64,000 nt of DNA from Candidatus Omnitrophota bacterium (GCA_026416665.1 JAOAET010000028.1:3706-67705), one strand, 5' to 3'. Counted from the first letter of the stretch, positions 46,175 through 64,000 are shown. The notes: generated by a model not told the origin, from the letters alone. Numbers and translations are program-made.

Positions 46175-46450
46175 TATTATAACATCGATATTTTTTTTAT
46201 CAATTTTCTAGTTCTTACGACTTTTTTAAATTTTATTTAAAAATTAAAAATACAAAAATAAGCTGTTTTCTTCAATGGTCAAATCTCAATAAAACTTTGT
46301 AGCCTTTTGTTTATTCTAGTTTTTAAAATAACCTTAGAAAAACAAAGATTTTAGTTCTTATGAAAAGGTAAGAGAATTTAACTAAGTCGGTTAGAATATA
46401 TTTTAGGGAATAGTTACTTTAAGAATTTTATTGTTACTCTTGTATTTATT

Positions 46451-47185: not shown

Positions 47186-47595
47186 AATTCATCACCCCTT
47201 GTTTTATTTAGGGTTGCAATTTTACTTAGCAAACTCAACTCCAAGTAACTTAAATTAAAAGGTTTAGTAATATAATCGTATGCCCCTTCTTTTAAAGCCT
47301 CTTCCGCAATTTCTCTCTCTGCATAGGCAGTAATCATAATTACCGAAGTCTCGGGATATTTTGCCTTTATCTTGCGCAAAATCTTTATTCCGTTTACTCC
47401 TGGCATTTTAATGTCCAAAAACACTACATCCCGTTTTTCCTGCTCTAAGAAAAGAAGTGCCTCCTCGCCATTTTGAGCACAAGATACATTCGTAAAACCT
47501 TTTTGTCGCAAAAACCGTTCTAAAAATTCTCTAACTGCCTTCTCGTCATCCACGATAAGAATTTTCTCTTTTTTAGCTTCTGTGTTTATATCCAT
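47182..47595 (-). CDS. Single-domain (CheY-like) response regulator
   Basis: REC domain (ILIVDDE...DIKMPGVNG...KP). Confidence 0.85.
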   Translation of the reverse strand: MDINTEAKKEKILIVDDEKAVREFLERFLRQKGFTNVSCAQNGEEALLFLEQEKRDVVFLDIKMPGVNGIKILRKIKAKYPETSVIMITAYAEREIAEEALKEGAYDYITKPFNLSYLELSLLSKIATLNKTRGDEL

Positions 47596-47613
47596 AGCCT
47601 AATCTCCTTCTTT

Positions 47614-49698
47614 CTAACCACTGGTAGTCAAAACATTATTACCTTGCTCTATAACCGGTAGTCTTATTCTAAAACAAGTGCCTTCTCCTACGTTGCTTGA
47701 AACACTAATGTCTCCTCCGAGATCTTTTATAATACTGTAAACCAAAGACAGTCCTAAACCCGTTCCTTCTCCTATTTCTTTAGTAGTAAAAAATGGCTCA
47801 AATATTCTTTCTATATTCTCTGCAGGTATCCCAATTCCTGTGTCAGATATTTCCCAGATAATTTCTTTTTTTTGCCTATCATAACTAGTTTTTATTTTGA
47901 TAGTTCCATTACCCGTATTTTTTTTCTTAATTGCCCAACGCGCATTTGAGAGTATATCAAACAGTACCTGCTGGATGAGCTGTTCATCTCCAAGGAGCGC
48001 AGGCACATCTAAGGCAAGTTCTTTTTCAATAATTATATTTTCCAAGCGAAGGTCATGGGCGATAATTGCCACAACTTTTTCAACCTGCTCATTAATGTTA
48101 ACAGGTATCTTTCTTCCTTTAGATGCATGGGAAAAATCAAGCAGTGCCCGAGTAATTTTGACACAACGTTGGGCAGATTCTTCAATAATTGCAAGTAATT
48201 CTTTAAATTCATTGATATTAAAATCCTTTTTTTCTTGGGCAAGCATCTTGATAAGTTGAACATTGTTAAGAACACCGGTTAAAGGATTATTAATTTCATG
48301 AGCTACGCCTCCTGCTAAAGTACCTAATGAAGCCATTTTTGCTGCCTGAATTAACTGATTCTGGACTCGTTTCAACTCCTCATATGCCTTCTTAAGTGCC
48401 TCTTCAGTATTCTTAATAGCAGTAATGTCTCGCACCGTCTCAATAGCACCGACAATAGTGCCATCTAAGTCATATAATGGCGAAGCAATCGCCCAAACAT
48501 ACGCGCCATGGTTGTTATTTAGTTTGGGAACAAATACCTCTACAGTAAGCTTATTTTCTATGGCAGTTAGTCGCGGATAAAAATTTTCTGCCTCTATAGT
48601 CGGGTCAAGTAGCAAATCTACAAGAATCGGTCTTCTTTCACCATAAAACGGTAGCGCATATTCGTAATCACCTTTTCCTATAATATCTTTTGCAAGAATA
48701 CCTGTAAACTGTTCCATAGCTTTATTCCAAAAAATAACTTTTCTGTTAGAATCAATAACAAAAGTAGGGTCAGGCAAGAAATCAATTATATTAGCAATAT
48801 CCTGCTTTGACTTCATTAATTCTTTCTCAATACGTCTTCGCTCTTCTATTTCAAGCTGTAAAAGAAAGTTATACCTCTCTAATTCCTCTTTACGCTGTTT
48901 TTCCTTTTGGAGTAAATTCTTAAGTTCTTCAGTCATAGTATTGAAATACTCAGTAGCCAGCCCAATTTCATCATAATGAACAATCTTTAATCTTCCTGAA
49001 AAATCCCCACTTTTTACTCTCCGCATTCCATCAATAAGCCTGTCTATGGGGTATAAAATAATGCGTTTGAAAAATATCAAGATAGAAAAAGAAAGGATAA
49101 ATACTCCTAACGTAGACAAAATAATGTTTATATTTCTACTTTGTTTTACTTGCTTTAAAACTGACTCCCAATCTAATCCTATTCTTACTACTCCCAGAAC
49201 CTTGTCTTCTCTTCCATGACAGGGATAGCAGGATTTTTCATTAAAAATTGGGATGTGCTCAATAATTGTCCATCTCCCTGTTCTTTTTCTCTTCTCTATC
49301 TTCAAATAGGGTTTTCCTGTTAAGGAATCTTTTAGAGTATCAGAAATAGGTATTTGCCCAATTAAACTTAAGTCGGTGCTCCGACGAATAAATCCATTTT
49401 TATCAGTTAAATGAATCATGGCAACCGCTGGCAGTTTACTGTATTCGTTAAACTGCTTTTGAATAATATCTTGATCACCATTTAACATAGGATTGCGCAT
49501 AGCAGTTAAGATAACCTGTCCCAGTTGTGCGGCATAATTAAAGGCTAATTTTTCTAATAATGAACGTTGATAATAAATATTTATAGCGCTGATTAGTGCC
49601 AAAATAAATAAAACCGCGGAACAAAAAACAAATATAGCTTTTAACCATAATGAATTTCTTAAGATAATTTTTCCTATTTTTTTATCCCATAACTTCAT
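47614..49698 (-). CDS. Membrane sensor histidine kinase: periplasmic CXXCH sensor, HAMP, PAS, HisKA, HATPase
   Basis: Two TM helices flank a ~145-aa periplasmic domain ending in SCYPCHG. The cytoplasmic part has a HAMP, then a PAS, then a HisKA (HEINNPLTGV) and an HATPase (GTGLGLS). Confidence 0.85.
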   Translation of the reverse strand: MKLWDKKIGKIILRNSLWLKAIFVFCSAVLFILALISAINIYYQRSLLEKLAFNYAAQLGQVILTAMRNPMLNGDQDIIQKQFNEYSKLPAVAMIHLTDKNGFIRRSTDLSLIGQIPISDTLKDSLTGKPYLKIEKRKRTGRWTIIEHIPIFNEKSCYPCHGREDKVLGVVRIGLDWESVLKQVKQSRNINIILSTLGVFILSFSILIFFKRIILYPIDRLIDGMRRVKSGDFSGRLKIVHYDEIGLATEYFNTMTEELKNLLQKEKQRKEELERYNFLLQLEIEERRRIEKELMKSKQDIANIIDFLPDPTFVIDSNRKVIFWNKAMEQFTGILAKDIIGKGDYEYALPFYGERRPILVDLLLDPTIEAENFYPRLTAIENKLTVEVFVPKLNNNHGAYVWAIASPLYDLDGTIVGAIETVRDITAIKNTEEALKKAYEELKRVQNQLIQAAKMASLGTLAGGVAHEINNPLTGVLNNVQLIKMLAQEKKDFNINEFKELLAIIEESAQRCVKITRALLDFSHASKGRKIPVNINEQVEKVVAIIAHDLRLENIIIEKELALDVPALLGDEQLIQQVLFDILSNARWAIKKKNTGNGTIKIKTSYDRQKKEIIWEISDTGIGIPAENIERIFEPFFTTKEIGEGTGLGLSLVYSIIKDLGGDISVSSNVGEGTCFRIRLPVIEQGNNVLTTSG

Positions 49699-50093
49699 TG
49701 CTTTGAATTCCTCACAGCTAAAATGCGGTTTATAATTTCTGTCAAATTAAAAGGCTTATGCAATAGCTCAAAGTTGTGTCTGTTAATTTCTTCAATTAAT
49801 CTATCTTCACCATAGGCAGTAATAATATAAATTTTGGCATTGGGTTTTTTTTGGTGTATCTTTAAAGCTGTATCACAACCATTTAAACCCTGCATACGCA
49901 AATCTATAAAATATAAATCACAGCAAATTTTATCAGTTAGCTCTAAAGCCTTTTGCCCATTCTCTGCTTCATAAAGTTTTACATCAGTTAACTCGGCAAT
50001 ACGCCGGAATAATTGCCGAATTACCAAAGCATCATCAACAACCATAACTTTAAAAGGTGTTGAACTGTTATGTTGCTGTCCGTAGCTTTCCAT
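49695..50093 (-). CDS. Single-domain response regulator
   Basis: REC domain (VMVVDDALVIRQL...DLRMQGLNG). Confidence 0.8.
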   Translation of the reverse strand: MESYGQQHNSSTPFKVMVVDDALVIRQLFRRIAELTDVKLYEAENGQKALELTDKICCDLYFIDLRMQGLNGCDTALKIHQKKPNAKIYIITAYGEDRLIEEINRHNFELLHKPFNLTEIINRILAVRNSKQ

Positions 50094-50106
50094 ATTTTTG
50101 TGCGAT

Positions 50107-50301
50107 TTACTCTTTTTTTACTGAATTTATAATCTGCTCAAGGTCAGTTTTTCTAAAACGACGATGACCTCCCAAGGTTCTAAATGGTCTTAACAATCCT
50201 TTTTTTTCCCAGTTACGTAAAGTAAGCGGTAAAACTCCTAATAACTTGGCAGCCTCAGAAATCGTCAGTATTTCTTTAACAGAATCTTCCTTCTTTCTCA
50301 T
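50107..50301 (-). CDS. Stand-alone excisionase/MerR-type HTH DNA-binding protein
   Basis: 64 aa: ILTISEAAKLLGVLPLTLRNWEKKGLL...GGHRRF, an HTH_17-like domain. Confidence 0.5.
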   Translation of the reverse strand: MRKKEDSVKEILTISEAAKLLGVLPLTLRNWEKKGLLRPFRTLGGHRRFRKTDLEQIINSVKKE

Positions 50302-50317
50302 CTTCTAACCCTAATTA

Positions 50318-50689
50318 TTAACCAGTTAATTCCCGAATCATTCGCACTAACTCTTGCAATTTTACTGGCTTAGAAAGATATAACCAGCCACCGATAATAT
50401 TCTTTTTTTGATTAACCTCTTCTTCTTCTACAATGGCAGTCAGAAATACAACTGGTATATTGCGCGTCTCTACATCTGATTTTAGCTCTTGTGCAATGTC
50501 TGGACCAGATTTTCCAGGCATCATGACATCAAGAAAAATAATATCTGGTTTAGTTGACTTTACCTTTGCTACTGCTTCTAGGGCATTGGAAACAGTAACT
50601 ACTGAAAATTCTTTTGTGTCTTCTAAGTTTTGTTTTAAAAAGAAACAAAAGTCCGTTTCATCATCAATAATCATTACTGTTTTTTTCAT
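50318..50689 (-). CDS. Single-domain response regulator
   Basis: REC domain (VMIIDDETDF...DVMMPGKSG). Confidence 0.85.
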   Translation of the reverse strand: MKKTVMIIDDETDFCFFLKQNLEDTKEFSVVTVSNALEAVAKVKSTKPDIIFLDVMMPGKSGPDIAQELKSDVETRNIPVVFLTAIVEEEEVNQKKNIIGGWLYLSKPVKLQELVRMIRELTG

Positions 50690-52385
50690 TTTCCTTCCTT
50701 TCTTTTAACGGTAAAACCACACTTACACGCGTTCCTTTTCCAAGTTCACTTTCTATTAAAATTTTTCCATTGTGGTTTTCTATAATCATCTTGGCCATAG
50801 AAAGACCCAGACCTGTTCCACGCCTGTCGCGTTTAGTGGTAAAAAATGGTTCAAAGAGTTTAGACAAATTTTCAGGTGATATACCTTCTCCGGTATCAGT
50901 GACTTCCATAACACAGGCAGGTTTATCACCCAAAGCAGAATGTCTCGGATCAAAAAATGTGCGGATAAGCAAACTTCCACCATTGGGCATAGCATCCGTG
51001 GCATTAGAGAAGAGATTAAACAATACCTGCTGTATTTGATTACGGTCAACATATACGGTAGCATTATCATCAGCAAACTCGGTCTCAATACGAATATTCC
51101 TATTGGGAACGCGGTATTGAAATAATGCTAAGGCCTCAGTTACCAAATCATGACAAGTCACATATTCCAACACTGAGTTAGAAGGTCTAGCAAAGCGAAG
51201 TAGGTTAAGGATAATGGCGTTTGCCCGAAGAGTTGCTTCTTTCATTTTTTGTAAAGCTATAACAATGTTTTCTTCAGCAGCACTTAAACGAGCCTCTAGA
51301 TACTCCACACCACCTAAAACTATGGCTAAGGGGTTTTTAACCTCATGAGCAATACCTGCAGAAAATCTTCCTAATGCGGCTAATTTCTCGGACTGAATCA
51401 ACTGTGCCTGCGCTTGATTGAGTTTATCAATAGTCACATTCAAATCATAAATTTTTCTCTGTAACTGTTCATAAAGAGACGCATTTTCTAAAGCAATTGC
51501 TGCCTCATCAGCTAAAATACCAAGCAGTGTCTGTTCACGAGCAGTAAATCTTTCACCATCTGCTTTGTCTGATACATTAAGCACACCAAAGAGTTTATCT
51601 TGTGAAGCAATTGCAATGCTAACAAAAGTTGGTTCAGAATCCTTTTTGCTTTCATATCCATTTTCTGAATGAGAACGAAGATATAAAAAATTTTTTATAT
51701 TGCCACAGATTGATCTTCTTTCTAAAGCAACTTTTCCTGAGATACCTTCACCTAAAGGGATACGGGTGTTTTTAATAACTTCTTCTGGTAGACCTCTTGC
51801 TGCTTTTATAGAAAGGGTCTGGCTCTGTTCGTCTAATAAAAGTAGAGAACCACAGGTAGCGCCAGTTATTTCTAAAGCTGCTTGAAGAACTTTATTTAAA
51901 AGCTCACCTTTATCAATACTATTGGCAATAGAACGGCTTACTTCAAACATAGAAGCCAATTCACTTATTGCTACTTTATTTATATTTTTTCTCTGGCGTT
52001 CAAGACATCTCTCAACAATTGATAACAACTCAAACAAATTAAAAGGCTTGGTGATATAATCATAAGCACCTATTTTAAGCGCCTGAACTGCTGTTTCTAC
52101 GGTAGGATAACCCGTTAAGACAATCACCTCAACAAAGGGATTATGGCGTTTTACCTCCTTAAGTAAATCTAATCCACCTACCTTAGGCATCTTAAGGTCA
52201 GTAATCAATAAATTAATAAAATTATCTTGGGAAAGTAAAGATAAGGCGGCCTCCCCATTTTCCGCAGTAAAACAAGCAAAATCTTTTTGCTCAAGGAACA
52301 TTCGCAATGAATCACGAATAGCCGGCTCATCATCAACTACTAAAATTCGTGGCTTTTCATTACTCCGCACTTCCGTTTCATTCAT
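50664..52385 (-). CDS. Hybrid REC-GAF-histidine kinase
   Basis: N-terminal REC (ILVVDDEPAIRD...DLKMPKVGG), a central GAF, HisKA (HEVKNPLAIV), HATPase (GTGLGLSMAK). No TM segment. Confidence 0.85.
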   Translation of the reverse strand: MNETEVRSNEKPRILVVDDEPAIRDSLRMFLEQKDFACFTAENGEAALSLLSQDNFINLLITDLKMPKVGGLDLLKEVKRHNPFVEVIVLTGYPTVETAVQALKIGAYDYITKPFNLFELLSIVERCLERQRKNINKVAISELASMFEVSRSIANSIDKGELLNKVLQAALEITGATCGSLLLLDEQSQTLSIKAARGLPEEVIKNTRIPLGEGISGKVALERRSICGNIKNFLYLRSHSENGYESKKDSEPTFVSIAIASQDKLFGVLNVSDKADGERFTAREQTLLGILADEAAIALENASLYEQLQRKIYDLNVTIDKLNQAQAQLIQSEKLAALGRFSAGIAHEVKNPLAIVLGGVEYLEARLSAAEENIVIALQKMKEATLRANAIILNLLRFARPSNSVLEYVTCHDLVTEALALFQYRVPNRNIRIETEFADDNATVYVDRNQIQQVLFNLFSNATDAMPNGGSLLIRTFFDPRHSALGDKPACVMEVTDTGEGISPENLSKLFEPFFTTKRDRRGTGLGLSMAKMIIENHNGKILIESELGKGTRVSVVLPLKERKENEKNSNDY

Positions 52386-52415
52386 GAGAAAACCTCTTCT
52401 TTAGTTATCTTTTGT

Positions 52416-52787
52416 TTATTGTCTCAAAATACCCAGAACAGCACTCTTTAATTCATTTATATCTAAAGGCTTAGTAAAAATCTTTAGTATATTATATGGC
52501 TGTAACCGATAATCAACTTCCTTACTTAACCAACCTGTTATCACTATAACTGGGGGCGGCATTTTTAATTGATTTAACTTCTGTAATAATTGTTCTCCCG
52601 ACATAACAGGCATAACTAAGTCAAGCAAAATTAAATCTACTTTCCTATGTTGTATAAATTTCCAGGCATCTAGTCCATTTTGATAAACAAAAATGTTAAT
52701 TTTTTCTTTCGCTAAAATACGTTTAGTAAATTCCAAAATAATTTCTTCGTCATCAACTATGAGTAAATTTTTATATATTTTATCCAT
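52416..52787 (-). CDS. Single-domain response regulator
   Basis: REC domain (LLIVDDEEIILE...DLVMPVMSG). Confidence 0.8.
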   Translation of the reverse strand: MDKIYKNLLIVDDEEIILEFTKRILAKEKINIFVYQNGLDAWKFIQHRKVDLILLDLVMPVMSGEQLLQKLNQLKMPPPVIVITGWLSKEVDYRLQPYNILKIFTKPLDINELKSAVLGILRQ

Positions 52788-52850
52788 TTTAATTAAGTTT
52801 TAGCTCAATAATATAATAGCATATACTTTGTATAAATTCAAGGTAAATTT

Positions 52851-52877
52851 TATTATATTTTATTATATTTTATTATA
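52851..52877. repeat. AT-rich 10-bp tandem direct repeat (TATTATATTT x2.7) in a promoter region
   Basis: tattatattt tattatattt tattata, read directly, 65-90 nt upstream of the REC gene start at 52787. Confidence 0.5.
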
Positions 52878-52893
52878 ACAATTTTATCAAACT

Positions 52894-54606
52894 TTAGTTA
52901 ATGGAAAAAGTTAAGGTAACGGTAGTGCCTATTTGGGGAGTGCTTTGGAAATCAATACTGGCATTAAACTGGGAAAGTATTCTCTTTACCACAGAAATTC
53001 CTAAACCTAAACCCCTACCAGGTTGTTTAGTTGTAAAAAACGGTGTACCTATCTGTTTTAGATATTCCGGTAATATTCCCATTCCTGTGTCTGTAATACT
53101 TACTACTAAAGATTTCTTTGGTTTATCATAAATAGCTTTAACTGTAATTTTCCTTTCTTTTTCAGGTGGATTAGATTCTAAGGCATCCTTGGCATTAGCT
53201 AAGAGATTAAGAAATACCTGTTGTAATTGATTCTCATCTCCAAACAACTTAGGTAGTACCGATTCAAAATATGTCTGTGTCTTTATTGAAAGATTATTAA
53301 ACTCCACACTCATCAAATCTATTGACTTAAAGATTACTTTCTCCAAATCAATTGTTTTTCGTTCCTGGGTAGTTTTACGAGAAAATTGGCAAATACTTCC
53401 AATAATCTCCTTCATTCGGTCGGCTTGTTCTATAATCTTATCTAAATCCTTTCGTAAAGGATTATCGGGCTGTAAATCATAATATGCTGCCTGGGCAAAA
53501 CCTTTTATTCCTGTAAGAGGCTGATTTAATTCATGAGAAATACTTGCGGCAATCTGTCCCATAAAAGCAAGTTTTGAAGCATGTAGAAGCTCTTCCTGAG
53601 TCTTTTTTAATTCTGTTAAATCACGAATTGATTCTATTGCTCCAATTAAATTTCCCTTACTATCGTATAAAGGGCTAGCAACACCTGATAAATACGCCCC
53701 TTTATTATTATAAACACAAGGCACAAAAGTCTCTGCGTATAATATCCCATTATTTTCTTTTATATTTATGTATTTTTCTCTTACTTGCGGAGTATTTTTT
53801 AAAACAAGGTCAATCAAAATAGGTCTACGTTCACCGTAAAAAGGCAAGGCATATTCGTAGTTGCCTTTACCAATTATCTGCGCTGCTTTTATACCGGTCA
53901 TCTTCTCAATTGCCTTATTCCACGCAGTAACTCTGCCATTTTTATCAATTACAAAAGTAGCATCAGGCAAAAAATTGAGGATATTAAATAATTGGTTACG
54001 AGCCTCTTCAATTTCTGCTAATACCTTTTCTTTTTCAGTTATGTCCAGAAAAACACCAATTATTTTTTTTACTTTTCCTCTCTCAGTTACGGCATAACCG
54101 ATAGCCCTAAGGAATAACTGCTCTTTATTAGTATTATCCATCAACTCTATCTCTATATCAAAAGGTAAACCCTGCTTCACAGAGAAAAAGAACGCTTTTC
54201 TTAAGACATCCATAGACTCTAATGTGTAACTAAACCTATTAAGTTTAAAATGTTGAACAATGTTTTTCTGAAGAGAAACTTTTTGAGAAAAAAACATCTT
54301 TGGACAAGGTACAATTGCCTGTTTCTGTAGATTAAACTCCCAACCTCCTAGGTGTTCTAAACGTATGCTCTGTTCTAAGAATCTATCTGCTAGAATAAGG
54401 CATTCTTGGTCCTTTAACTGTTCTTTGTTTCTTTTATGTCCTGTATGAGATATCTTAAAACTTTCCGCTTTTTTTAGGGAAGACAGTTTCAATAAATTTG
54501 CTTGAATGTTAGATGCCCGTGAAACCTTAGATACCTGTTTTCTAAATTGCTTAAGTAATCTTTTTTCCCTTAAGGTATTTCTCTTTTTCTTATTGGTTTT
54601 AGCCAT
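52894..54606 (-). CDS. Cytoplasmic PAS-PAS histidine kinase
   Basis: Basic N-terminus, two PAS-like modules, HisKA ([10 protein letters not shown]), HATPase (GRGLGLGIS). The second PAS is a close paralog of the PAS in the 47614..49698 kinase. Confidence 0.85.
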   Translation of the reverse strand: [570 protein letters not shown]

Positions 54607-54730
54607 GCTTATCCTTTCTTAGATTTTCCCATTTATTTTTTTATGCTATTCCTGTTATTTTCTTCATAAAAACTCAACGGACTTTCAGGAGAATTACCTT
54701 ATAAAATAACCTGCATATTATTTAAAAATA

Positions 54731-54768
54731 AAAAAGCTATTTTACTGTTTTGGTAAAATAGCTTTTAA
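54731..54768 (-). terminator. Rho-independent terminator after the HTH-REC gene
   Basis: 11-bp perfect stem AGCTATTTTAC / GTAAAATAGCT flanked by A- and T-runs. Confidence 0.65.
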
Positions 54769-54814
54769 AGAAAGCATCTTTTTCCTCCTTACCCTCCAAA
54801 AAGGAGTAAAAAAA

Positions 54815-55378
54815 CTATTTTTGTCTTGCAGCCTCTAGAACTTTTTTCATCTCCTCCAAATCAAAAGGTTTGGCTATAGAAGTAAAAGCACCTAATCGTG
54901 CTGCCTCAATACTAGTCTCTAAATCTGCAAATGCACTTAAGATAATAACCGGTATAGATTTATCAAATGCCTTTATTCTTTTTAAGGTATCTATACCACT
55001 TAAACCGGGCATCCGCAGATCTAAGAGCACCACATCTGGCCTAGTTTTTTCTATTAATGCAAGACCTTCTTCCCCCGAAGAAGCAGTTAAAACCTGATAA
55101 TCAGCAAGTGCCTTTACGAAGTATTCACGGATAGCTTTTTCATCATCAATTATCAAAATTGTAGGTTTTGGTTTTGCCGTTTTATAATGCTGGGATAAAA
55201 TTGTTTTATCTTTTACCTGCGACATAAGCCATTGGTCAATAAGCTCTTTCTTAAAACGCCATTCACTGGAAATCTTGAAGGCAGGAATTTTACCTTCCCG
55301 TGCAAGCTTATACACAGTCATTTTGTTCATTTTAAGGTACTTAGCGGTCTGCTTTATATCCATTAAACTATCTTCCAT
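54815..55378 (-). CDS. Response regulator with N-terminal excisionase/MerR-type HTH and C-terminal receiver
   Basis: N-terminus IKQTAKYLKMNKMTVYKLAREGKIPAFKI (HTH_17-like); C-terminus ILIIDDEKAIRE...DLRMPGLSG (REC). Confidence 0.75.
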   Translation of the reverse strand: MEDSLMDIKQTAKYLKMNKMTVYKLAREGKIPAFKISSEWRFKKELIDQWLMSQVKDKTILSQHYKTAKPKPTILIIDDEKAIREYFVKALADYQVLTASSGEEGLALIEKTRPDVVLLDLRMPGLSGIDTLKRIKAFDKSIPVIILSAFADLETSIEAARLGAFTSIAKPFDLEEMKKVLEAARQK

Positions 55379-55428
55379 TTCTTTTTGTCCTCTCTTAAGT
55401 TAGAATATCCTTATTTATTATAAATAAA

Positions 55429-55812
55429 TTAATATTGTATCATATTATTTTTGATAAAATTTATCAGCTGAGCCACAGTTACAGGTTTAGCAATAAAAGG
55501 CCTGCCGGCAATAGTGTCTCCTTGAGGAGTTACTTCATAGTCTCTTATCAAGGCTGTCAGAAAACCCACTGGAATATTCTTTAACTCTGCATCTTCACTT
55601 AACTGATGGGCAATCTCACCACCGTCCATATCAGGCATTACAATATCCAAAAGTATAAAATCGGGTTTAAACTCTCTTGCCGCAGGAAGGGCGCGAATTC
55701 CTTTTGTTTCAGTTCGCACTTCAAACTCACCTGTTTGTTCAAGATTTAGCTTTACTAAACGACAGAAACTTTCTTCATCATCAACTATTAGAATCTTTTT
55801 TCTGCCCTTCAT
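55429..55812 (-). CDS. Single-domain response regulator
   Basis: REC domain (ILIVDDEESF...DIVMPDMDG). Confidence 0.8.
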   Translation of the reverse strand: MKGRKKILIVDDEESFCRLVKLNLEQTGEFEVRTETKGIRALPAAREFKPDFILLDIVMPDMDGGEIAHQLSEDAELKNIPVGFLTALIRDYEVTPQGDTIAGRPFIAKPVTVAQLINFIKNNMIQY

Positions 55813-57130
55813 CGTAAACCTCCTTCTGGTGAACTTTTAATGCAATCTCAACAATGACTCCTTTTCCTTGTTCAATTGGTTTATTGCGGATACTAATTAA
55901 TCCTTTATGGGAGGCAATAATGTTATTTACTACTGCCAATCCTAAGCCTGTTCCGCCTTGATTACGTTTGGTAGTAAAAAAAGGGTCAAAAACTTTAGAA
56001 AGATTTTGCTCGGGAATGCCACAACCACTGTCTTCTACAGTAATAACTAATACCTCATCTTGAGGCCGAAAATAGTCTTGTCTTCTTAAACCAATTAGAT
56101 GACTTGTGAGTTTTTCTGCCTTTATTAATCTCACCTTTATTTCTAATCTTCCACCTTCTGGCATTGCATGAATAGAATTTTCAAATAAGTTTATAAACAC
56201 TTGGGTCATTTTATTTACATCAATCAATGTTAATGGCAGATCAATAGGAATATCCTTCTCTACATTAATGTGAAATTTGTCCAATTGATGTTTTAATAGT
56301 AAGAGTGCCTTATCAATAGGTTGGTTTATCTGAACTGGTTGATTATCTAATTTTGAGATACTGGAAAAATCTAAAACACCCTTTATGATTGCGTCTGCGC
56401 GCATTGTTGCTTCTTTAAGGTCATTAAGAACAACAGTAATATCCTTCTCATAGATAGGAATTTTTTTTTCTAAATATTCAGTTGCCTGTAAAATAATTGC
56501 AAGAGGGTTTTTTACTTCATGAGCTATTCCAGAAGCAAGGCGTCCAATAGTTTCCATCTTTTCTGCTTGAATAAGTTGGGATTGTGTAGTTTTAAGCTCT
56601 TCGATAACTTTGCGTAATTGTTGTTCGGTGGCGTTCCTTTTGTTAATTTCAATTTCTAACTGACTTATTGTCTGTTGAAGTTGTTCTGTCCTCTGATTAA
56701 CCTGTTGTTCTAATTTCTCAGCGTAAAGTCGTAATTGCTCAAGCAATCGTTTACGTTCAATAGCATAACGTATAGAACGTTTAAGGGTCTGCGCATCAAC
56801 TGCTCCCTTAACAAGATAATCTTGAGCACCTGCATCTAAGGCCTCTAAAGCTAAATTCTCATCTGCAACACGTGTTAAAACTACAATGGGAATAAGCGGT
56901 TGTGCTTTCTGAACTTTCAGAAAAGTATCTAGACCTATGCCGTCGGGAAGAGTCAAATCCAAAAGAATTAATTGGCAAGTCTGTTGCTTTAAAAAAGAAA
57001 AAGCCTCAGAGAGATTTGGAACCTGAAATAATATAAAGTCTTTTAGTGCTGGCTCATTAAAAATATCCTTAACTATCCGTGCATCAAAGGCACTATCTTC
57101 CACCAATAAGATTTTTGTTTTAGTATCCAT
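55781..57130 (-). CDS. Hybrid REC-histidine kinase
   Basis: N-terminal REC (ILLVEDSAFD...DLTLPDGIG), coiled coil, HisKA (HEVKNPLAII), HATPase (GTGLGLAVV). Confidence 0.85.
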   Translation of the reverse strand: MDTKTKILLVEDSAFDARIVKDIFNEPALKDFILFQVPNLSEAFSFLKQQTCQLILLDLTLPDGIGLDTFLKVQKAQPLIPIVVLTRVADENLALEALDAGAQDYLVKGAVDAQTLKRSIRYAIERKRLLEQLRLYAEKLEQQVNQRTEQLQQTISQLEIEINKRNATEQQLRKVIEELKTTQSQLIQAEKMETIGRLASGIAHEVKNPLAIILQATEYLEKKIPIYEKDITVVLNDLKEATMRADAIIKGVLDFSSISKLDNQPVQINQPIDKALLLLKHQLDKFHINVEKDIPIDLPLTLIDVNKMTQVFINLFENSIHAMPEGGRLEIKVRLIKAEKLTSHLIGLRRQDYFRPQDEVLVITVEDSGCGIPEQNLSKVFDPFFTTKRNQGGTGLGLAVVNNIIASHKGLISIRNKPIEQGKGVIVEIALKVHQKEVYDEGQKKDSNS

Positions 57131-57431
57131 AAACTGGATTTGTTTTCGACTTTCTCGTAATTAATAAAATTTATTACGGTTAGGTAAAATTTCTTGCTGC
57201 TAATATCAATTTACTATGACTAACTCTTTAATTTTAAATCAATAATTTCTTAATTTATATATTTTACCATTTTTTAATATTTGCGCATCAGATTTTAATC
57301 ATTTTAAAAATATTTTTTGCAAAATTTAGTTTGTCTAAAAATATCTTAAATTTTTTTAGTTTTATCATTAACAAAAATTTATACCTCAACTAGCTAATGT
57401 CAACTATAATCTACACTACACACTTTGATAC

Positions 57432-57755
57432 TCAAATAGAATTATTCTGTAATATAGACTCTAGCTTAATACCTATTCTAAACTGTGCAGGGGCTATCTT
57501 TTTTTGCCAAACAATTGTCCCTTGCCTATAGATTGGCTGTTGGTTTTCCTGTAACATAACCCAAATATCTACGATTGCTTTTCTTACCATCACTCTTTTG
57601 GTAATAACTCCGAGGCCGTTTGCACTTATATCACAACATACACCTCTACGTAGAGCAATTCTTTTAGTATCAATAAGACGAAGCGGTAAATTACAATTAA
57701 GACGCCTAAATGTTCTTCTTTCTTTTCTATCTACAATATCCATATTATTAAACAC
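57432..57755 (-). CDS. PilZ-domain c-di-GMP-binding protein
   Basis: RRTFRR (RxxxR) and DISANGLG (DxSxxG). The start codon overlaps the stop region of the giant ORF by 8 nt. Confidence 0.6.
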   Translation of the reverse strand: MFNNMDIVDRKERRTFRRLNCNLPLRLIDTKRIALRRGVCCDISANGLGVITKRVMVRKAIVDIWVMLQENQQPIYRQGTIVWQKKIAPAQFRIGIKLESILQNNSI

Positions 57756-60700
57756 TCCCAGTAAATTCAGACAATTGTAAAAGTTGTTTCTCTATTCGCC
57801 AGCTTATTTTCTGTGCCTCTACTTTAATCTCATCAAGAATCCGAAAATCCACATAGTTTACCAATTCCATAATAAAGAATATTTTGTTTTGGTAACGTAA
57901 AAACCATTCAAGAGGTAATCCCTTTGCGGTAGTGTCATAACTATTCATATTTTTGTTGAATTCGTTGCTTAATGGATTTATTTCTTCTTGTAAATTTGTA
58001 AGTAATATCGTATTCTTTCCTGCTCCCTTTTTCCTTCCCAGCTTAATACATACCAAAGCCCCCACTTTTTCTGTATCTTTTTTAAAATAAATTAATTTAT
58101 AACCCACAAAGTGGTATGGGGGTATGTAACATTCTAAAATATCTGAAATATCTGACTTGTAATTTTGTTTCTGAGGTACTGGTCTGCTGTGTCTTTCCTT
58201 ACAAGGAAGAACTAGATTGCCTCCATCTTTGTCCCTAAAGGTTTTTGGGGATTCTGGCATTTTCCTAGTATCATTGTCCGATTTAATCTTGCATATTCTG
58301 ATTAAAGTAGTCGGACCTATGTCTTTAGCTGTATAACCAGCTAATTCGGAAGTTCTCAATAATTCATCAAACTGGAATCGATTGTTTGAAAAGTAATCAA
58401 AAAAGAAGAGTCCTTTGTCTTTTAAAACTCGCACTATTTCTTTTAATACAGGTAGAGAAATATCTTCAAGGGCAGTAGAGGTATAAACAATATCTATAGA
58501 ACTATTCTTTATAAATGGCAACCAAGCTGCATCTGCTGTCCTTAACAATAAATTTTTAGGCAAAGTAGATACACCATTTATACCTTTCTTCTTTAACTTA
58601 TAAACCTCTTCTATCTTCCAAGAAATCCCCTCATCAAAATCAACCAAAAAGCGATAAGCAGAAATCTCCTTGGCTAAACGAATAGTATCGGTCTGCCTAT
58701 CTATAGCAATAACTTCTTTAAAATTACCTTTAGTAGCAGCAATTAATGCAAAACCACCCCAACCGCAACCTAACTCCAGTAATCGTTTTTTTTCTGGAGA
58801 TTCTACATATCTTAAAACAATATCCAATTGTTCAGCCGGAGTCAAATCGCCCCAACAGCGGTATCTAACTAACTGTTTAAATTCTTGGGCAGTAAGTTTT
58901 CCTAACCAACCGCCGTCATGTTTATTTACTTCTTTATCTAATCCTTCTTTTTTCTCTCCAAATCTACTACTATCTGTGATATTAAATTTTTGTGAATTAA
59001 GAGACATTCCTTTTTTACGTAAATAAAAAGTATGGCGAGATTTTTTGTATCTTACTGGTTCAAAATTCATTTTTATTTGGTCATCTATTTCCTGAGGAAA
59101 TTTATAGATGAGTAAATCTGCTTTTATGCGTTCAGCTAAATCAATTAAATGCTGAGTAAGTTCTGGATATGGTCTGATGGCATAAATAAGGTTGGCATTA
59201 TCATATATATCATTGCAAGGTTTTGTTACATCATCTCTTACAACTTGCACATCAATTGCATATTTTTCTAAGGCAGTGGACGTCTCTTTAAGTAATAAAG
59301 GATTAACATCTGTAGCAATTACTTCTAAGTTAGCAGGTCCGCGTTTTTTAATGTATGCACAAACCCACCATACCGCCCCTACTCCTATCTCTACTATTTT
59401 TCTTGCTTTTGAATAATTTTGAAGAATATAGTAAGCTATTGCCCTTCCGATCTCATCGCGTCTAAGGTGTTCTTGAATCGAGAAACTATTGTTTTCTCCT
59501 CCATCTTTTTGCCACCAAGAAACAAGTTCTCCATATGTTGAGCTATAAAATTGTCCTTCATAATTAAATTTAATATCATCATCCTCAGAAATTTTGCATT
59601 GACCTTTCTTTCTATGTGTGCCTTTTAATTCCATCAACTTTTGGTATTCCTCTAAGGGACTACTTATATAAGGTCCATAAGGAAAGTCCTGTGGTAGAGA
59701 AAACCACTCTCTTTTTCTAGTTTGTTTACGTTGTTCCCAAGTAAGCTCATAATATATATTATAAAAAACAGCTATTCCCTTTGGTCGCAGAATGTCGTTT
59801 GTGGCCTTCCAAGTATTCTTGGAACCTTCTATCCCAAGTATTTCAGTTCCTGTGCTTAAACTACCGTATATAAAATCTATACTTTTCTCTTTGAAAACAT
59901 ATTTTAAGTCAAGACAAGACATATAGTAAACAGAGCATTTTTCTTTTAGGTTGTCTTTCCCTTTAATCTGCCTTGCTAAGTCTTCTACGTTTTCCTTTAA
60001 TACTTCTACAAGATATATAGCTTCTGGTTTTATTCGTTCTGCCAAATACTCAGCTTCAGTAAGCCATTTTCCAGGACCAAGAATCATTACTACTTCATAT
60101 GTAGAAATATCATGTTGTTTTAAACATCGTAAACTCTCTTTTATTCTTTGTTCTGCATCTAAATACATCTTATGGTCACGGCCTTGATAAGTGGCATCTT
60201 CAGCAATTACTTCTTCAGCTAAACTAATATGTCCTGGTTGCGCTGGGATGTCTTTTTTTGTGCATTGTTGGTTTTTAAAAGATAGAACAACAGGCTTATA
60301 CCTATCAATATCACCTCCATCACAGCCTTCAATAAGACTATTCCAGAACCTTGCATAGCGCTGGTTCGGTAATAAAGTTTCTTTCACCCATTGCATTAAC
60401 CAGTTTTTACTCCAAATTTTTCCATAACGGCTTCTAAAATCTCTAGCAGTATTGGGATCAATATAAAGCTGGTAACTATTTTGTGTCTTTCTTTTACTCT
60501 TCCAAACATCGGGATGGAAAATATCACTCCATGAAATTAGACACAATTCTTGTGGCTTAAGAACCTTGTTCCAGACAAGCGCAGCTATCTCAAGAAGTAA
60601 GAATACATCAAGGTAATTTTTATTGGTTTTAGGATTTTTCTGGAATTTAGAAAAAGGATAAGGTGAAAGGTAAAAACTTACTTTAGCGCCTTCTGCACAC

Positions 60701-63700
60701 TTCTCTAAAAACTTGCCATCTATTATAAATCTTACATTTCCTTTTTCCAGCCAGGAAAATTTTTCTTGGAACTTTTTAGGAATAACTCCTGATAATCTAG
60801 AAACCCAGAATTTTATCTGTCCAAAATTAGTAAATTTGTCAAAAGTCTTAATAATAATAATTCCATCATAATTGTAAGGTTTAGTATATGTAGGATTAAT
60901 TGTCTGCACAGCCACTATCTCAGCAATTTTTTTATTAAATAAGTTTAATACTTCTGCTTTTACTTTATAAACACCTTGCTGGTTATCTTCTGGTGAATAA
61001 ATTCGTATAGTTGCCCTAATAAGAAATGGAAAAGAAGTTAACTTAACCTCTCCACCATCTTTGTAGGTGTTTAAAGAATAATTTTTGTGTAAGTAACTTT
61101 GAATTACTATCTTTAGCTTTTTAATCTCTGGCAAAAACCCTAATGGGGCTTTTCTATAACCTACTCCAAAACAGTTCCAGAATTTCTCCGCTTTTTTATC
61201 TAAAGGTAAAATTTGTATTTCTTTAAAATTATGTTTTTCAAAGTAATTACAAATAGATAAAACAAGCCGAGAACCAATTTTTTGCCGTCTTAAAAATGGG
61301 TGCAAGTGAATAGAACTAAGTTCAATACAAAATTCGTCAATTTTGCTTATTTCAAGCCACACTAAATACTCAAGCCCAATGCTGATAACTATCCTAAATC
61401 TTTCTTCTAAATAAGAATTCTCTACTTTTATTTTAATATTATCTGTTTCGTTTGCTTCTTCAAACCCTTTGCTTCTTTGTATTTCTCTTGCTCTTTTTAT
61501 TATCTCTTTAATTAAATCTCTCCCAATTAGTTCTAGCGCATCCTTATCAGAAATCCAAAACTCCTCACCCCCGTCTCTTGCAAGACAATTACGGTTATAT
61601 ATCTTTCCAGATTCATTATTCTTATTTATTTTAAGGGATACTTTTTTGTCATCTGCTTCTATTAATTTTATGTCTTTTAATTTAATAAAGTTTTTCTTAA
61701 AAGATATAATTATTTCATCCCAGTTTTTGCGGTCACGAGTAAACTCAACTACGCCTTTTTTATTGGGGGTGTAGATGGTTGCAGGAAGCTTCTTTATATC
61801 CAAAAGCATTGCGGCTAAAACACGGTGATGTCCATCTACAACATATCTATAATATTGAATTATACCTTTCTTAGCTTTTTGATAGTCAATATCTTCCCAG
61901 ATAATAAGTGGTTGCTTGATATTATTTGCCAAAAAGTAAATCTGTAATATTAACTTTTCAAATTGACAAATATGGCAAGTAGGTAATAACTCACTTATTG
62001 ATACATAACTTTTTTCTTGAGTAACACTGTTTAGCCCTGTGTTTTTATCTTGGTGAATAGCAAGGATATCATTTATGATATCGGAAGGATGGATAAACTT
62101 TTGCCTGCTGAATATCTCATTAATGTATTCTCTACTAAAAGTTAAATAAGAAACGTCTTTTTTATCTTTCCCGCCATCATAATTTCTCTCTTCTAAGTTT
62201 TTCTGATAATTTTTCCAAAAATTAAGATAAGCGGAGAGTTCTATTCCGTCATAGAACTCATTTATCGTCCAAATTGGTTGTCCTTTTTTAAAATGTCTTT
62301 GCTTAATACTATTTAGAACAACAATACTTACCATTCGTAGCTTACTGCTAGTATGTCTATTAAGATAATACAAACATGCAGGCAAGGCTTTTAAATCCAT
62401 AAGCGCCAATGCTTCAAAATAATGTCTGCAAACAGACAAGTTAAAATCATTAGCCATTGCTTTTAATAAGGCCGGTGTACTTTCCCTGCCTTGTAAGGCC
62501 AAAGCTGCTACAACAAGAAAGGAAAGTAACTCATTATCACTTATTCGTAATGTCTCAATTAAGAACTCTGTTGCTTTTGACCCAAGATGCCCTAATGCCT
62601 CCAAAGCAACAACTGTCAATTCCTGTTGCGCCATAGCATTAATAATGGGCTCAACTGCTTGGGTAGAACGACTGTATCCTAAAATAGCCACTGCTAAAGC
62701 CTTTGCCTCTGTATTCTCACTTTTTTCTAAAAACTTAATAAGTTCTTTAACGGCATGCTCTCCATATTTCAGAAGTGCATCCATAGCAACTAATTTTATC
62801 TGTTCATCTTCGTCTTCTAATAAACTTACAAAAATCTTAATTGACCTTTCATCTTTTAAAGAAAGTAAAACTTTGGCAGCAACCATTCGTTTCTTTTTGT
62901 CGTCCTCCTTACTTAATTGTTTTCTAAAGTAAGATAAATTTAGAATCTTTTTATTCTTCTTTCTCTGGAATTTTATTTTGTCTTTTTGGTCACCGCCGTC
63001 GAGGTTATTTTTCTCCTGTTCAAAACGATATATTTCTGCAAAACAAAGCCCGCCCTTGACAATAAATAATTGTTTTACTTTATCATAAAATATCCTTATA
63101 GGTAGTGCCTCTTCTTCAATATACGCTAACTTTAGTGCTTCAAGATGGCGTTTGGAAATACTAATTCTTCCTTCTGCTATATTCTCATAAATGTCTTCTT
63201 TATCCAGAAAATCTGTTTCATCTACCAGCTCAACTACCTGGGGTTCACCATCGCATGAAGTAGTTAAACGCAAGATTTTTCCTTTTGCAACAACTTCAAA
63301 TGCTTCATCCTCTAAGAATACCAAACCTGCATAAGGGCTGTTTACAAAAAGTTGATGCCAAAATACTTCATCATTAGTTTTTGTTCGTTTTTGACGAGGA
63401 TAACGTTGGATAAAGCGATGTTCTTGTTTCGTAACTGGTTTCTTAAGTAACGCAAGTGCCTTTTCTGGCTGGTCAATATAATCATAAAAGAAGTCAATAG
63501 CTTTTTTATGGGCTGTAATTTTTTCAGAACGCCAGCATTCATACAGTTTACCTAATATTAATTCCGCTATCACAAAATAGTAAATTCCATTTGTATCTTG
63601 AGCTAAAACCTGATAATATTCTGTACCACTTATTTCTCTAAGTAAAATTACACGAAAGCGTTCTTTACCCTCTAAAAACTCATGGTTGTCTATATTAGTT

Positions 63701-63981
63701 CCACAGCCTCCGTCTTGTTTCTTCTCTCTTTTTTTCTGTAAAAGGCGTATTTTTGTAAGTATAAAATCCTCTAAAATTTCTTCATCTTCTCTATTACGTG
63801 CAACAACTACCCATTCTTTTATAAAAGGATAATGGTTATATGTTCCGTTTAAATCCCCATATTCTTTTATGAAATCTGTGGTTAGAAACAATAATTTTAG
63901 CGTATCTTCCCAAGCAGGTTTTCCAGATATTCGAGAGGTAAAGGAAATGGTAAAGATATGGTCCAAAGTAACAGGGGACAT
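57748..63981 (-). CDS. Giant 2077-aa multidomain protein: HEAT/PBS-lyase repeats, ParB-like (DGHHR), GNAT acetyltransferase, three class-I SAM-methyltransferase domains
   Basis: One uninterrupted 6.2-kb ORF. It carries HEAT_2-like repeats (~aa 370-520), YVVDGHHRVLAA (ParB/Srx fold), HPFLRRQKIGSRL (GNAT motif A), and three MTase cores: VMILGPG...IDFIY...LRPKGIAVF; IVEIGVGAV...VIATD; LLELGCGWGG...IAIDRQ...SIDIVY...LKDKGLFFF. Confidence 0.8.
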   Translation of the reverse strand: MSPVTLDHIFTISFTSRISGKPAWEDTLKLLFLTTDFIKEYGDLNGTYNHYPFIKEWVVVARNREDEEILEDFILTKIRLLQKKREKKQDGGCGTNIDNHEFLEGKERFRVILLREISGTEYYQVLAQDTNGIYYFVIAELILGKLYECWRSEKITAHKKAIDFFYDYIDQPEKALALLKKPVTKQEHRFIQRYPRQKRTKTNDEVFWHQLFVNSPYAGLVFLEDEAFEVVAKGKILRLTTSCDGEPQVVELVDETDFLDKEDIYENIAEGRISISKRHLEALKLAYIEEEALPIRIFYDKVKQLFIVKGGLCFAEIYRFEQEKNNLDGGDQKDKIKFQRKKNKKILNLSYFRKQLSKEDDKKKRMVAAKVLLSLKDERSIKIFVSLLEDEDEQIKLVAMDALLKYGEHAVKELIKFLEKSENTEAKALAVAILGYSRSTQAVEPIINAMAQQELTVVALEALGHLGSKATEFLIETLRISDNELLSFLVVAALALQGRESTPALLKAMANDFNLSVCRHYFEALALMDLKALPACLYYLNRHTSSKLRMVSIVVLNSIKQRHFKKGQPIWTINEFYDGIELSAYLNFWKNYQKNLEERNYDGGKDKKDVSYLTFSREYINEIFSRQKFIHPSDIINDILAIHQDKNTGLNSVTQEKSYVSISELLPTCHICQFEKLILQIYFLANNIKQPLIIWEDIDYQKAKKGIIQYYRYVVDGHHRVLAAMLLDIKKLPATIYTPNKKGVVEFTRDRKNWDEIIISFKKNFIKLKDIKLIEADDKKVSLKINKNNESGKIYNRNCLARDGGEEFWISDKDALELIGRDLIKEIIKRAREIQRSKGFEEANETDNIKIKVENSYLEERFRIVISIGLEYLVWLEISKIDEFCIELSSIHLHPFLRRQKIGSRLVLSICNYFEKHNFKEIQILPLDKKAEKFWNCFGVGYRKAPLGFLPEIKKLKIVIQSYLHKNYSLNTYKDGGEVKLTSFPFLIRATIRIYSPEDNQQGVYKVKAEVLNLFNKKIAEIVAVQTINPTYTKPYNYDGIIIIKTFDKFTNFGQIKFWVSRLSGVIPKKFQEKFSWLEKGNVRFIIDGKFLEKCAEGAKVSFYLSPYPFSKFQKNPKTNKNYLDVFLLLEIAALVWNKVLKPQELCLISWSDIFHPDVWKSKRKTQNSYQLYIDPNTARDFRSRYGKIWSKNWLMQWVKETLLPNQRYARFWNSLIEGCDGGDIDRYKPVVLSFKNQQCTKKDIPAQPGHISLAEEVIAEDATYQGRDHKMYLDAEQRIKESLRCLKQHDISTYEVVMILGPGKWLTEAEYLAERIKPEAIYLVEVLKENVEDLARQIKGKDNLKEKCSVYYMSCLDLKYVFKEKSIDFIYGSLSTGTEILGIEGSKNTWKATNDILRPKGIAVFYNIYYELTWEQRKQTRKREWFSLPQDFPYGPYISSPLEEYQKLMELKGTHRKKGQCKISEDDDIKFNYEGQFYSSTYGELVSWWQKDGGENNSFSIQEHLRRDEIGRAIAYYILQNYSKARKIVEIGVGAVWWVCAYIKKRGPANLEVIATDVNPLLLKETSTALEKYAIDVQVVRDDVTKPCNDIYDNANLIYAIRPYPELTQHLIDLAERIKADLLIYKFPQEIDDQIKMNFEPVRYKKSRHTFYLRKKGMSLNSQKFNITDSSRFGEKKEGLDKEVNKHDGGWLGKLTAQEFKQLVRYRCWGDLTPAEQLDIVLRYVESPEKKRLLELGCGWGGFALIAATKGNFKEVIAIDRQTDTIRLAKEISAYRFLVDFDEGISWKIEEVYKLKKKGINGVSTLPKNLLLRTADAAWLPFIKNSSIDIVYTSTALEDISLPVLKEIVRVLKDKGLFFFDYFSNNRFQFDELLRTSELAGYTAKDIGPTTLIRICKIKSDNDTRKMPESPKTFRDKDGGNLVLPCKERHSRPVPQKQNYKSDISDILECYIPPYHFVGYKLIYFKKDTEKVGALVCIKLGRKKGAGKNTILLTNLQEEINPLSNEFNKNMNSYDTTAKGLPLEWFLRYQNKIFFIMELVNYVDFRILDEIKVEAQKISWRIEKQLLQLSEFTGSV

Positions 63982-64000
63982 AAAAATCTCAAAAAACCAG

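Follow-up and report, generated by a model that had tools for sequence, protein, structure and literature searches.

Giant open reading frames (ORFs) are a hallmark of the Omnitrophota, and whether their products act as single proteins or are cut up is explicitly an open question. One such ORF is present in a 64,000-nucleotide stretch of DNA from a Candidatus Omnitrophota bacterium (GCA_026416665.1, JAOAET010000028.1:3706-67705), which was analyzed at its full length and is called the window below. The giant ORF occupies window positions 57748-63981 on the minus strand and encodes at least 2077 amino acids (aa), counted from the ATG at 63981. A first-pass annotation had pointed out that the tripeptide Asp-Gly-Gly (DGG) recurs nine times in this protein, and had proposed either a linker turn between domains or a set of processing sites. 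What does DGG mark? Our computational results show that DGG is conserved at the level of the protein and joins modules that are complete and unrelated to each other. We consider, with moderate confidence, that these junctions are most likely cleavage sites after Gly-Gly in a bacterial polyprotein.

Cleavage of Omnitrophota giant proteins has been suspected from their C39 and S8 domains by West-Roberts et al. (10.1101/2023.11.21.568195), who stated that the cleavage points are unknown and for this reason could not split the proteins for structure prediction. In the report on the 'multi-enzyme metabolic cluster' proteins (10.64898/2026.06.07.730766), the terms 'motif', 'linker', 'cleav' and 'polyprotein' are absent, and internal signal-peptide calls are treated as artefacts. 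Both reports describe C39 domains as frequent in Omnitrophota giant proteins, and neither mentions a junction motif, a linker or particular cleavage points. Seymour et al. 2023 do not discuss cleavage. No paper combining Omnitrophota with polyprotein was found in the searchable literature and, as far as this literature shows, the junction motif is undescribed.

DGG Excess in the Giant Protein

Translation reproduced all nine DGG and the contexts quoted for them, and the interval 58219-63714 reported earlier corresponds to the last and first DGG codons. Among the residue numbers given by the first-pass annotation, 90, 328, 975, 1689 and 1919 were exact, whereas 605, 815, 1237 and 1496 are really 602, 803, 1221 and 1493 (off by 3-16). 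From the composition of the giant protein, 0.29 DGG are expected versus nine observed (Poisson p = 3e-11); the earlier estimate had been fewer than 0.5. None of 20,000 shuffles of the protein reached nine DGG, and the maximum was 4. DGG is the most over-represented tripeptide of the protein, by seven orders of magnitude, and accounts for 9 of its 11 GG dipeptides; EGG, NGG, DGA and DGS do not occur in it. The remaining window ORFs (16.5k aa) contain 4 DGG against 3.3 expected. Thus, a genome-wide DGG bias was rejected.

The nine window sites are encoded as GAY GGN GGN with varied third positions, near the gene-wide usage. Neither tandem nor dispersed DNA repeats were found across the sites, and no resemblance was detected at E below 1e-3 when the modules of the giant protein were compared with each other. 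Therefore, a DNA repeat or a tandem duplication was rejected as the source of DGG, and the excess is not a repeat artefact. Selection at the protein level, as had been proposed, is supported by these results. A Shine-Dalgarno sequence or internal start behind DGG was also rejected, since GGAGG is present at only 4 of the 9 sites and no consistent in-frame start codon is found downstream. The idea of a structured RNA or ribozyme in the giant gene was rejected, as no Rfam match was obtained with E-values allowed up to 0.1.

Local hydropathy is below average at all nine sites, three of which are within the lowest 1-4% of the protein. The claim of regular spacing could not be maintained. The intervals of 172-274 aa between window sites simply reflect the size of single-domain modules, and in the relatives described below the intervals range from 29 to 856 aa. 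The recurrence of DGG in the window is thus real and highly non-random.

Position of DGG Relative to the Modules

When the giant protein is split at DGG, ten unrelated modules are obtained (Table 1). All Pfam envelopes of the ORF fall between DGG sites. Stand-alone UPF0146 proteins (n = 71, median 142 aa) align to aa ~1507-1680 in module 8; this alignment starts ~12 residues past DGG1493 and stops ~9 residues short of DGG1689. Module 8 therefore corresponds to one stand-alone protein (~142 aa) with spacers of ~10 aa.

The structure of aa 1470-1720 was modeled by AlphaFold with the UPF0146 alignment. The core, at roughly aa 1510-1659, has a pLDDT above 90, and both DGG1493-1495 (model residues 24-26) and DGG1689-1691 are in coil with pLDDT below 50. 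Structure prediction had been suggested as a check on the boundary reading, and at these two sites DGG is outside the core. Over four proteins, including the relatives below, 0 of 62 motif sites are inside a Pfam envelope (product probability 9e-7).

The Pfam envelopes, the UPF0146 alignment and the AlphaFold coil consistently place DGG at module boundaries, as the first-pass annotation had stated. One of its examples, a methyltransferase core after aa 1237, was not recovered, as aa 1224-1492 have no Pfam match. In our best reading, DGG, preferentially as [K/R/Q]-D-G-G, is a conserved inter-module junction motif of the giant protein.

DGG-Punctuated Relatives

A word-index search with the whole giant protein returned only HEAT-repeat proteins, and a first scan of species genomes detected no relative. 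Exact look-ups of the protein and of P0005, its fragment in the public databases, gave no match. An exhaustive HMMER search was performed with aa 595-1701 against 1.84 billion representatives. No orthologue was detected; the search returned one identical fragment (P0005) and single-module matches in two further very long Omnitrophota proteins, P0017 and P0052. P0017 matches module 6 (hereafter module X), and the metagenome contigs L004 and L005 carry the gene of P0017. Word-index searches missed P0017 even with P0017 in the query, so that their negatives for such giant proteins do not mean absence. The L004 ORF is open over the entire 20.6 kb fetched (6868 aa, no stop) and contains 17 DGG versus 1.9 expected (p 3e-11). 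A scan of genomes with the module X alignment identified L003, an ORF in another Omnitrophota metagenome-assembled genome. It is unrelated to the ORF of L004, is open over 20.7 kb (6903 aa) and contains 18 DGG versus 1.78 expected (p 1e-12). L003, L004, L005 and P0017 all belong to Candidatus Omnitrophota. Since L004 and L005 have only 7 residue differences, this pair is uninformative on conservation.

In the giant ORF, P0017/L004 and L003 alike, aligned DGG bound module X on either side, at 27-33% identity, and a fourth fragment (P0078) retains the DGG at the C-terminal end. The modules adjoining module X differ among the three proteins. In 1.84 billion representative proteins, no relative of module X was found outside modules of DGG-punctuated Omnitrophota giant ORFs. 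Thus, the alignment check proposed by the first-pass annotation gave conserved DGG around module X, the sole module with relatives of this kind. Other modules common to L003 and L004 stand in different order, with the breakpoints at DGG.

Both L003 and L004 carry sugar-metabolism (glycolytic and glycogen) enzymes. L003 contains a full-length cofactor-independent phosphoglycerate mutase (iPGM; E 5e-161, aligned with residues 2-507 of PDB 2ify). The own Met of this enzyme directly follows DGG2802-2804 (KDGG|MIRPVALI), PDB residue 2 aligns to aa 2807, and the domain ends 14 residues ahead of the next DGG. In the dephospho-CoA kinase (CoaE) of L003, the P-loop N-terminus is 2 residues after DGG2598 (QDGG|IKIIGLAG). 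The SIS, HAD, alpha-amylase, glycogen-synthase-type and GT4 domains of L003 are all between DGG sites.

A site logo was prepared from 44 sites of three proteins, in which D, G and G are invariant by the selection of sites. K precedes D at 19 of the 44 sites (p 5e-11), R at 7 and Q at 5, and the position behind GG varies. The upstream flank of eight residues is markedly hydrophilic, to a degree reached by 0 of 2000 random site sets. We read this pattern as the probable shape of a protease site.

These results show that a group of giant proteins of the Omnitrophota shares the DGG punctuation. Because the pattern generalises to other proteins, the observation is better supported than it was from the window sequence alone.

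A Second Motif Type

P0052 (locus L002), an Omnitrophota protein of at least 5552 aa whose contig is wholly inside the gene, has the UPF0146 module in common with the window ORF. It is punctuated by SSSP[V/I], and SSP was observed 18 times versus 1.1 expected (p 3e-16). The Pfam domains of P0052 (PAS+GGDEF, TPR, receiver, HPr, UPF0146, LOG, alanine dehydrogenase and methyltransferase) are all between successive sites. Profile matches that begin at profile position 1-3 start about 10-13 residues past SSSP[V/I]. One module begins 8 residues past the motif with a consensus Tat signal (TRRHFLKFGAVV...), whose PF10518 match (E 9e-5) scores 22.6 bits, just under the cut-off of 22.7. A second module possesses TRRSFL and a hydrophobic stretch 21 residues past its motif. 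Thus, besides DGG, at least one other junction motif type exists.

A Tat signal normally requires a free N-terminus. The Tat-type signals of L002, at aa 1102 (TRRHFLK...) and 3491 (TRRSFL...), are 13 and 21 residues past SSSP junctions and internal to a polypeptide of >5,500 aa. As a further feature of P0052, the codon after Pro is start-capable in translation table 11 (GTG or ATH) at 14 of the 18 sites.

Putative Cleavage after Gly-Gly

We propose that each junction would be the recognition site of a Gly-Gly-directed endopeptidase, which would cut after the second Gly. The gene would be expressed as a polyprotein, and about ten proteins of roughly 10-30 kDa, each ending in ...DGG, would be released. 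The gene for the protease might be at another place in the genome, or the protease might be part of the ORF beyond the window. Many papain-like, ubiquitin-type and C39 peptidases cut after Gly-Gly. In L003, such a cut would give phosphoglycerate mutase and dephospho-CoA kinase back their native N-termini. The cleavage is plausible, and both its scissile bond and its protease are putative. The polyprotein reading gains plausibility because native N-termini directly follow DGG in the relatives, and because P0052 uses a different motif at the like position, once followed by a Tat signal. A lineage-specific motif, a variable residue after the motif and a Tat signal would fit a protease-substrate pair and would poorly fit a passive hinge.

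Several observations weigh against cleavage. The first-pass annotation had suggested searching the genome for a Gly-Gly-specific peptidase. None turned up in the window or in what is visible of the relatives, and scans of the giant ORF, of other window ORFs and of the visible sequence of L003, L004 and P0052 gave no peptidase domain of any family. The residue before D at the sites is Lys, and not hydrophobic as in classical C39 leaders. In L004, DGG2986 is inside a triosephosphate-isomerase (TIM) homology region, where it aligns with the loop preceding beta-3, and ~35 residues upstream of it are also covered by the alignment; about 1.9 DGG are expected by chance in this protein. Structure prediction covers two of the nine window sites, and the giant protein has no orthologues, with the positional conservation of DGG judged on one module (X). 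At the nucleotide level, the Asp codon is GAC at 16 of 18 sites in L003 and at 16 of 17 in L004, versus 38-41% gene-wide (p about 1e-5). In P0052, many sites have one 15-mer, TCC AGC TCG CCG GTG, mostly in the C-terminal half. The codon bias in the relatives hints at a nucleotide-level preference or at a recent common origin of the junctions.

The putative cleavage was compared with known systems. Viral polyproteins are cut after Gly-Gly by coronavirus PLpro (LXGG), by pS273R in African swine fever virus pp220/pp62 (GG-X) and by adenovirus adenain. As in these polyproteins, one ORF of the Omnitrophota encodes unrelated functional proteins, a short motif ending in Gly-Gly recurs, the next residue is variable, and the motif type depends on the lineage. 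The differences are the cellular chromosome, the lack of a recognisable protease domain in cis and the housekeeping enzymes in the relatives; the cleavage in Omnitrophota is putative. Polyubiquitin and ubiquitin-fusion precursors consist of head-to-tail units ending in Gly-Gly, which are released by Gly-Gly-specific hydrolases. Each released window module would likewise end in -GG. However, the window units are unrelated enzymes rather than beta-grasp repeats, and no deubiquitinase-like domain was found.

In classical C39 leaders, Gly-Gly directly precedes the cut, and the leader helix carries conserved hydrophobic residues at distances of 4, 7 and 12 residues ahead of it. The junctions resemble these double-glycine leaders in that Gly-Gly is just ahead of the putative scissile bond. 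In contrast, they show no leader-type helix, and the sites are internal and multiple, whereas a leader is single and N-terminal. Four residues before the putative cut, K, R or Q is present at 31 of the 44 sites, and no hydrophobic periodicity was observed upstream. Thus, a classical C39 leader was rejected, as Lys is in the place of a hydrophobic residue and the upstream periodicity is absent. Peptidase_C39 (PF03412) was undetected in every sequence scanned.

Within the same phylum, the 'multi-enzyme metabolic cluster' proteins (10.64898/2026.06.07.730766) consist of many Pfam domains that tile the polypeptide, none of which dominates by copy number. The window ORF is tiled in this way by HEAT, GNAT, UPF0146 and class I methyltransferase domains plus six unassigned modules. 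Its methyltransferase, GNAT and HEAT content matches 'module 1' and 'scaffolding' of that report, and L003 and L004 carry sugar-metabolism enzymes as described there. The class is defined by at least 10,000 aa, whereas 2077 aa of the window ORF are visible and its frame is open to the edge. The giant ORF fits this class, of which it may be a small or an N-terminally truncated member.

Alternative Explanations

DGG could be an uncleaved hinge, that is, a structural inter-domain turn with an Asp cap and two flexible glycines in one beads-on-a-string polypeptide, which would prevent misfolding of neighbouring modules or allow them movement. Gly-Gly is intrinsically flexible, the sites are in hydrophilic, low-confidence coil between domains, and no protease was found in the sequences scanned. 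However, natural flexible linkers are compositionally biased and not sequence-invariant, while one exact tripeptide is used at 44 sites of three proteins with unrelated modules, and SSSP[V/I] is used likewise in P0052. The Tat signal and the native start Met directly after the motif are also left unexplained. HEAT 'scaffolding' modules among the enzymes, noted for the class as well (10.64898/2026.06.07.730766), would suit a hinge. On balance, we regard an uncleaved hinge as unlikely.

The second alternative is module accretion or exchange. Giant genes would gain modules, or swap them with each other, at a brief nucleotide signal, approximately GACGGCGG or, for the other motif type, TCCAGCTCGCCGGTG, and the tripeptide would mainly be its translated footprint. 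The shuffling of modules between L003 and L004 with breakpoints at DGG supports such exchange, as do the near-identical 15-mers of P0052 and the strong codon preference at the sites of L003 and L004. There, the first Gly codon is GGC at 13 of 18 and 15 of 17 sites, respectively, and the preferred junction is AAA GAC GGC GGN. On the coding strand, the octamer GACGGCGG was found 12 times in L003 and 14 times in L004, each time in frame; the opposite strand has 0-1 copies. The first-pass annotation had claimed different codons at each site; this holds for the window, where the preference is not significant, but not for the relatives, which strongly prefer GAC GGC.

Against exchange as the cause of the motif, every third codon position varies in the window while the amino acids are invariant, and other sites of P0052 use the other serine codon family (TCN vs AGY). 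Both facts point to clear selection at the amino-acid level, and the serine switch requires it. A neutral scar would decay at non-synonymous positions too, and 8-15 nt is a short signal in comparison with known recombination systems. A translated footprint is therefore quite improbable. Accretion and cleavage can coexist, with junctions copied along with the modules.

A slimmer chance is given to a recognition site for something other than a protease. The motif might be bound by an enzyme that modifies it, by a chaperone or by a docking partner, or it might pause translation so that each module can fold before the following one emerges. The motif is exposed just past the end of each module, and the codon preference in the relatives could mean control of translation speed or accuracy. 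However, L003 and L004 prefer GGC and GAC, which are common codons, so that a rare-codon pause was rejected, and the window sites show no codon consistency. We know of no modification or docking system that uses DGG or SSSP[V/I] at domain boundaries.

The last alternative has hardly any probability. In this case, the giant ORF would encode a polyvalent protein from a phage or a conjugative element, an effector of many domains that enters together with injected DNA and is processed by a peptidase within it. This would account for a large polypeptide joining unrelated enzymatic domains, including methyltransferases, GNAT and a ParB-like motif seen by eye, but the neighbourhood consists of housekeeping and signalling chromosome genes without mobile-element context, the giant ORF has no match among 50,697 phage records, no Pfam match to a polyvalent hub domain (zincin-like metallopeptidase, ArdC-N, ParB and others) or to another peptidase was found in it, and the relatives hold glycolytic and glycogen enzymes. 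Polyvalent proteins combine 2-15 unrelated enzymatic domains, and their proteolytic release, by an embedded zincin-like peptidase, has been proposed by Iyer, Burroughs, Anand, de Souza and Aravind (2017, PMC5512222). Given the lack of a phage match and the housekeeping context, a phage or polyvalent origin was rejected.

Implications of the Junction Motif

A boundary motif that is readable from sequence provides the first concrete candidate cut sites for proteins long suspected of cleavage. It offers a rational division of giant proteins for annotation and structure prediction, and a handle on the protease by matching the motif type to the peptidase content.

More broadly, it is possible, with somewhat less than an even chance in our judgement, that Omnitrophota express batteries of ordinary enzymes as polyproteins, which would be cut at lineage-specific motifs (KDGG, SSSP[V/I]) by dedicated putative proteases. 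Under the polyprotein reading, these enzymes would be methyltransferases and an acetyltransferase in the window, and phosphoglycerate mutase, dephospho-CoA kinase, glycogen enzymes and Tat-exported proteins in the relatives. If true, this would be a cellular counterpart of viral polyprotein expression, and the 'giant proteins' of Omnitrophota would largely be precursors. If cleavage is confirmed, a cellular organism would be shown to make housekeeping enzymes as a polyprotein, the internal signal peptides discarded as artefacts so far would have to be re-read as real, and the gene and protein counts of these reduced genomes would change.

Feature Coordinates and Genomic Setting

The DGG sites and modules of the giant ORF are listed in Table 1.

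Table 1. DGG sites and the modules between them in the giant ORF, from the N-terminal to the C-terminal end (window coordinates).
Feature	Position	Strand	Residues (aa)	Context	Codons	Remarks
Module 1	63715-63981	-	1-89			No family match; may end a longer module if the ORF extends upstream
DGG site 1	63706-63714	-	90-92	KKQ-DGG-C	GAC GGA GGC	Hydropathy in the lowest 1% of the protein
Module 2	63001-63705	-	93-327			No family match
DGG site 2	62992-63000	-	328-330	NNL-DGG-D	GAC GGC GGT	
Module 3	62179-62991	-	331-601			HEAT repeats (PF13646, E 3e-17; matches alphaRep structures)
DGG site 3	62170-62178	-	602-604	RNY-DGG-K	GAT GGC GGG	
Module 4	61576-62169	-	605-802			No Pfam match; ParB/sulfiredoxin-like VDGHHR motif by eye only
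DGG site 4	61567-61575	-	803-805	LAR-DGG-E	GAC GGG GGT	
Module 5	61060-61566	-	806-974			GNAT acetyltransferase (PF00583, E 8e-7)
DGG site 5	61051-61059	-	975-977	TYK-DGG-E		N-terminal boundary of module X; aligns with DGG of P0017/L004 and L003
Module 6 (module X)	60322-61050	-	978-1220			No family match; relatives only in DGG-punctuated Omnitrophota giant ORFs
DGG site 6	60313-60321	-	1221-1223	EGC-DGG-D		C-terminal boundary of module X; aligns with DGG of P0017, L003 and P0078
Module 7	59506-60312	-	1224-1492			No Pfam match; Rossmann/methyltransferase-like by eye only
DGG site 7	59497-59505	-	1493-1495	WQK-DGG-E		Coil, pLDDT below 50 (AlphaFold)
Module 8	58918-59496	-	1496-1688			Complete UPF0146 domain (PF03686, E 2e-24; PDB 2k4m)
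DGG site 8	58909-58917	-	1689-1691	NKH-DGG-W		Within coil stretch of pLDDT below 50 (model residues 209-222)
Module 9	58228-58908	-	1692-1918			Class I SAM methyltransferase (PF08241/PF13847, E about 1e-10)
DGG site 9	58219-58227	-	1919-1921	RDK-DGG-N		
Module 10	57751-58218	-	1922-2077			No family match; runs to the stop codon

No stop interrupts the frame of the giant ORF between its ATG (63981) and the edge of the window (63999), and the residues WFFEIF are encoded ahead of Met. Thus, the giant protein may be longer, and its N-terminus is possibly outside the window. The 19 bases 5' of this ATG (63982-64000) are ctggttttttgagattttt, for which a coding or an intergenic nature are both possible. 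The T-run ctggtttttt upstream of the ATG may alternatively be the tail of an upstream terminator.

Co-transcription is suggested at the other end, where the start of a PilZ gene (57432-57755, minus strand) has an overlap of 8 nt with the stop of the giant ORF. The public record MCX7927153.1 ('UPF0146 family protein', Candidatus Omnitrophota) is identical to the C-terminal 628 aa of the giant protein and corresponds to P0005. It starts at Met1450, 43 residues ahead of DGG1493, and spans 57748-59634, the last 30% of the ORF. The host of the giant ORF is a Candidatus Omnitrophota genome according to the NCBI assignment of this record. The 1449 codons upstream of Met1450, in the same open frame, appear to be unannotated in the public record.

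The window is an ordinary bacterial chromosome with PilZ, two-component systems, HflX, ClpB and HrcA-GrpE-DnaK-DnaJ, as well as RNase G, S1, TyrRS, Obg, sugar-nucleotide enzymes and type IV pilus genes that include a secretin. Positions 45803-57755, immediately downstream of the giant ORF, hold a dense signalling cluster, which comprises two PilZ proteins, seven receiver-domain proteins and four histidine kinases, three of the latter being of hybrid or PAS/GAF/HAMP types. All annotated ORFs over the 64 kb are on the minus strand, an unusually strict co-orientation, and the GC skew is negative in each 2-kb bin. Three ORFs without Pfam match, at 25626-27818 (730 aa), 22261-23217 (318 aa) and 19955-20545 (196 aa), are located among pilins, PilM, PilN and the secretin.

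Module X and Other Modules of the Relatives

Module X is at positions 10001-10813 in L003 and ~9740-10600 in L004. Its conserved residues include W..I..P..W.SK, DF..RY and LLLEI, with an invariant Ser-Lys pair. As no invariant Cys or His was found in the alignment, module X was rejected as a Cys/His protease. Its profile had no match in the PDB, and AlphaFold with the three-sequence alignment gave an unusable model (pLDDT 41).

The TIM-like module of L004 (aa 2957-3183, locus ~8870-9550) seems to be without the N-terminal GNWK catalytic motif, and WIVELA replaces WAIGTG. Judging from these residues, it may be a diverged or inactive TIM. Mini-modules of 29-76 aa are also present between two motifs, in L003 (aa 160-189, 1333-1378 and 5242-5282), in L004 (aa 5474-5509 and 3533-3609, the latter with two hydrophobic segments) and in P0052 (aa 725-770). 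These mini-modules might be spacer peptides or small proteins.

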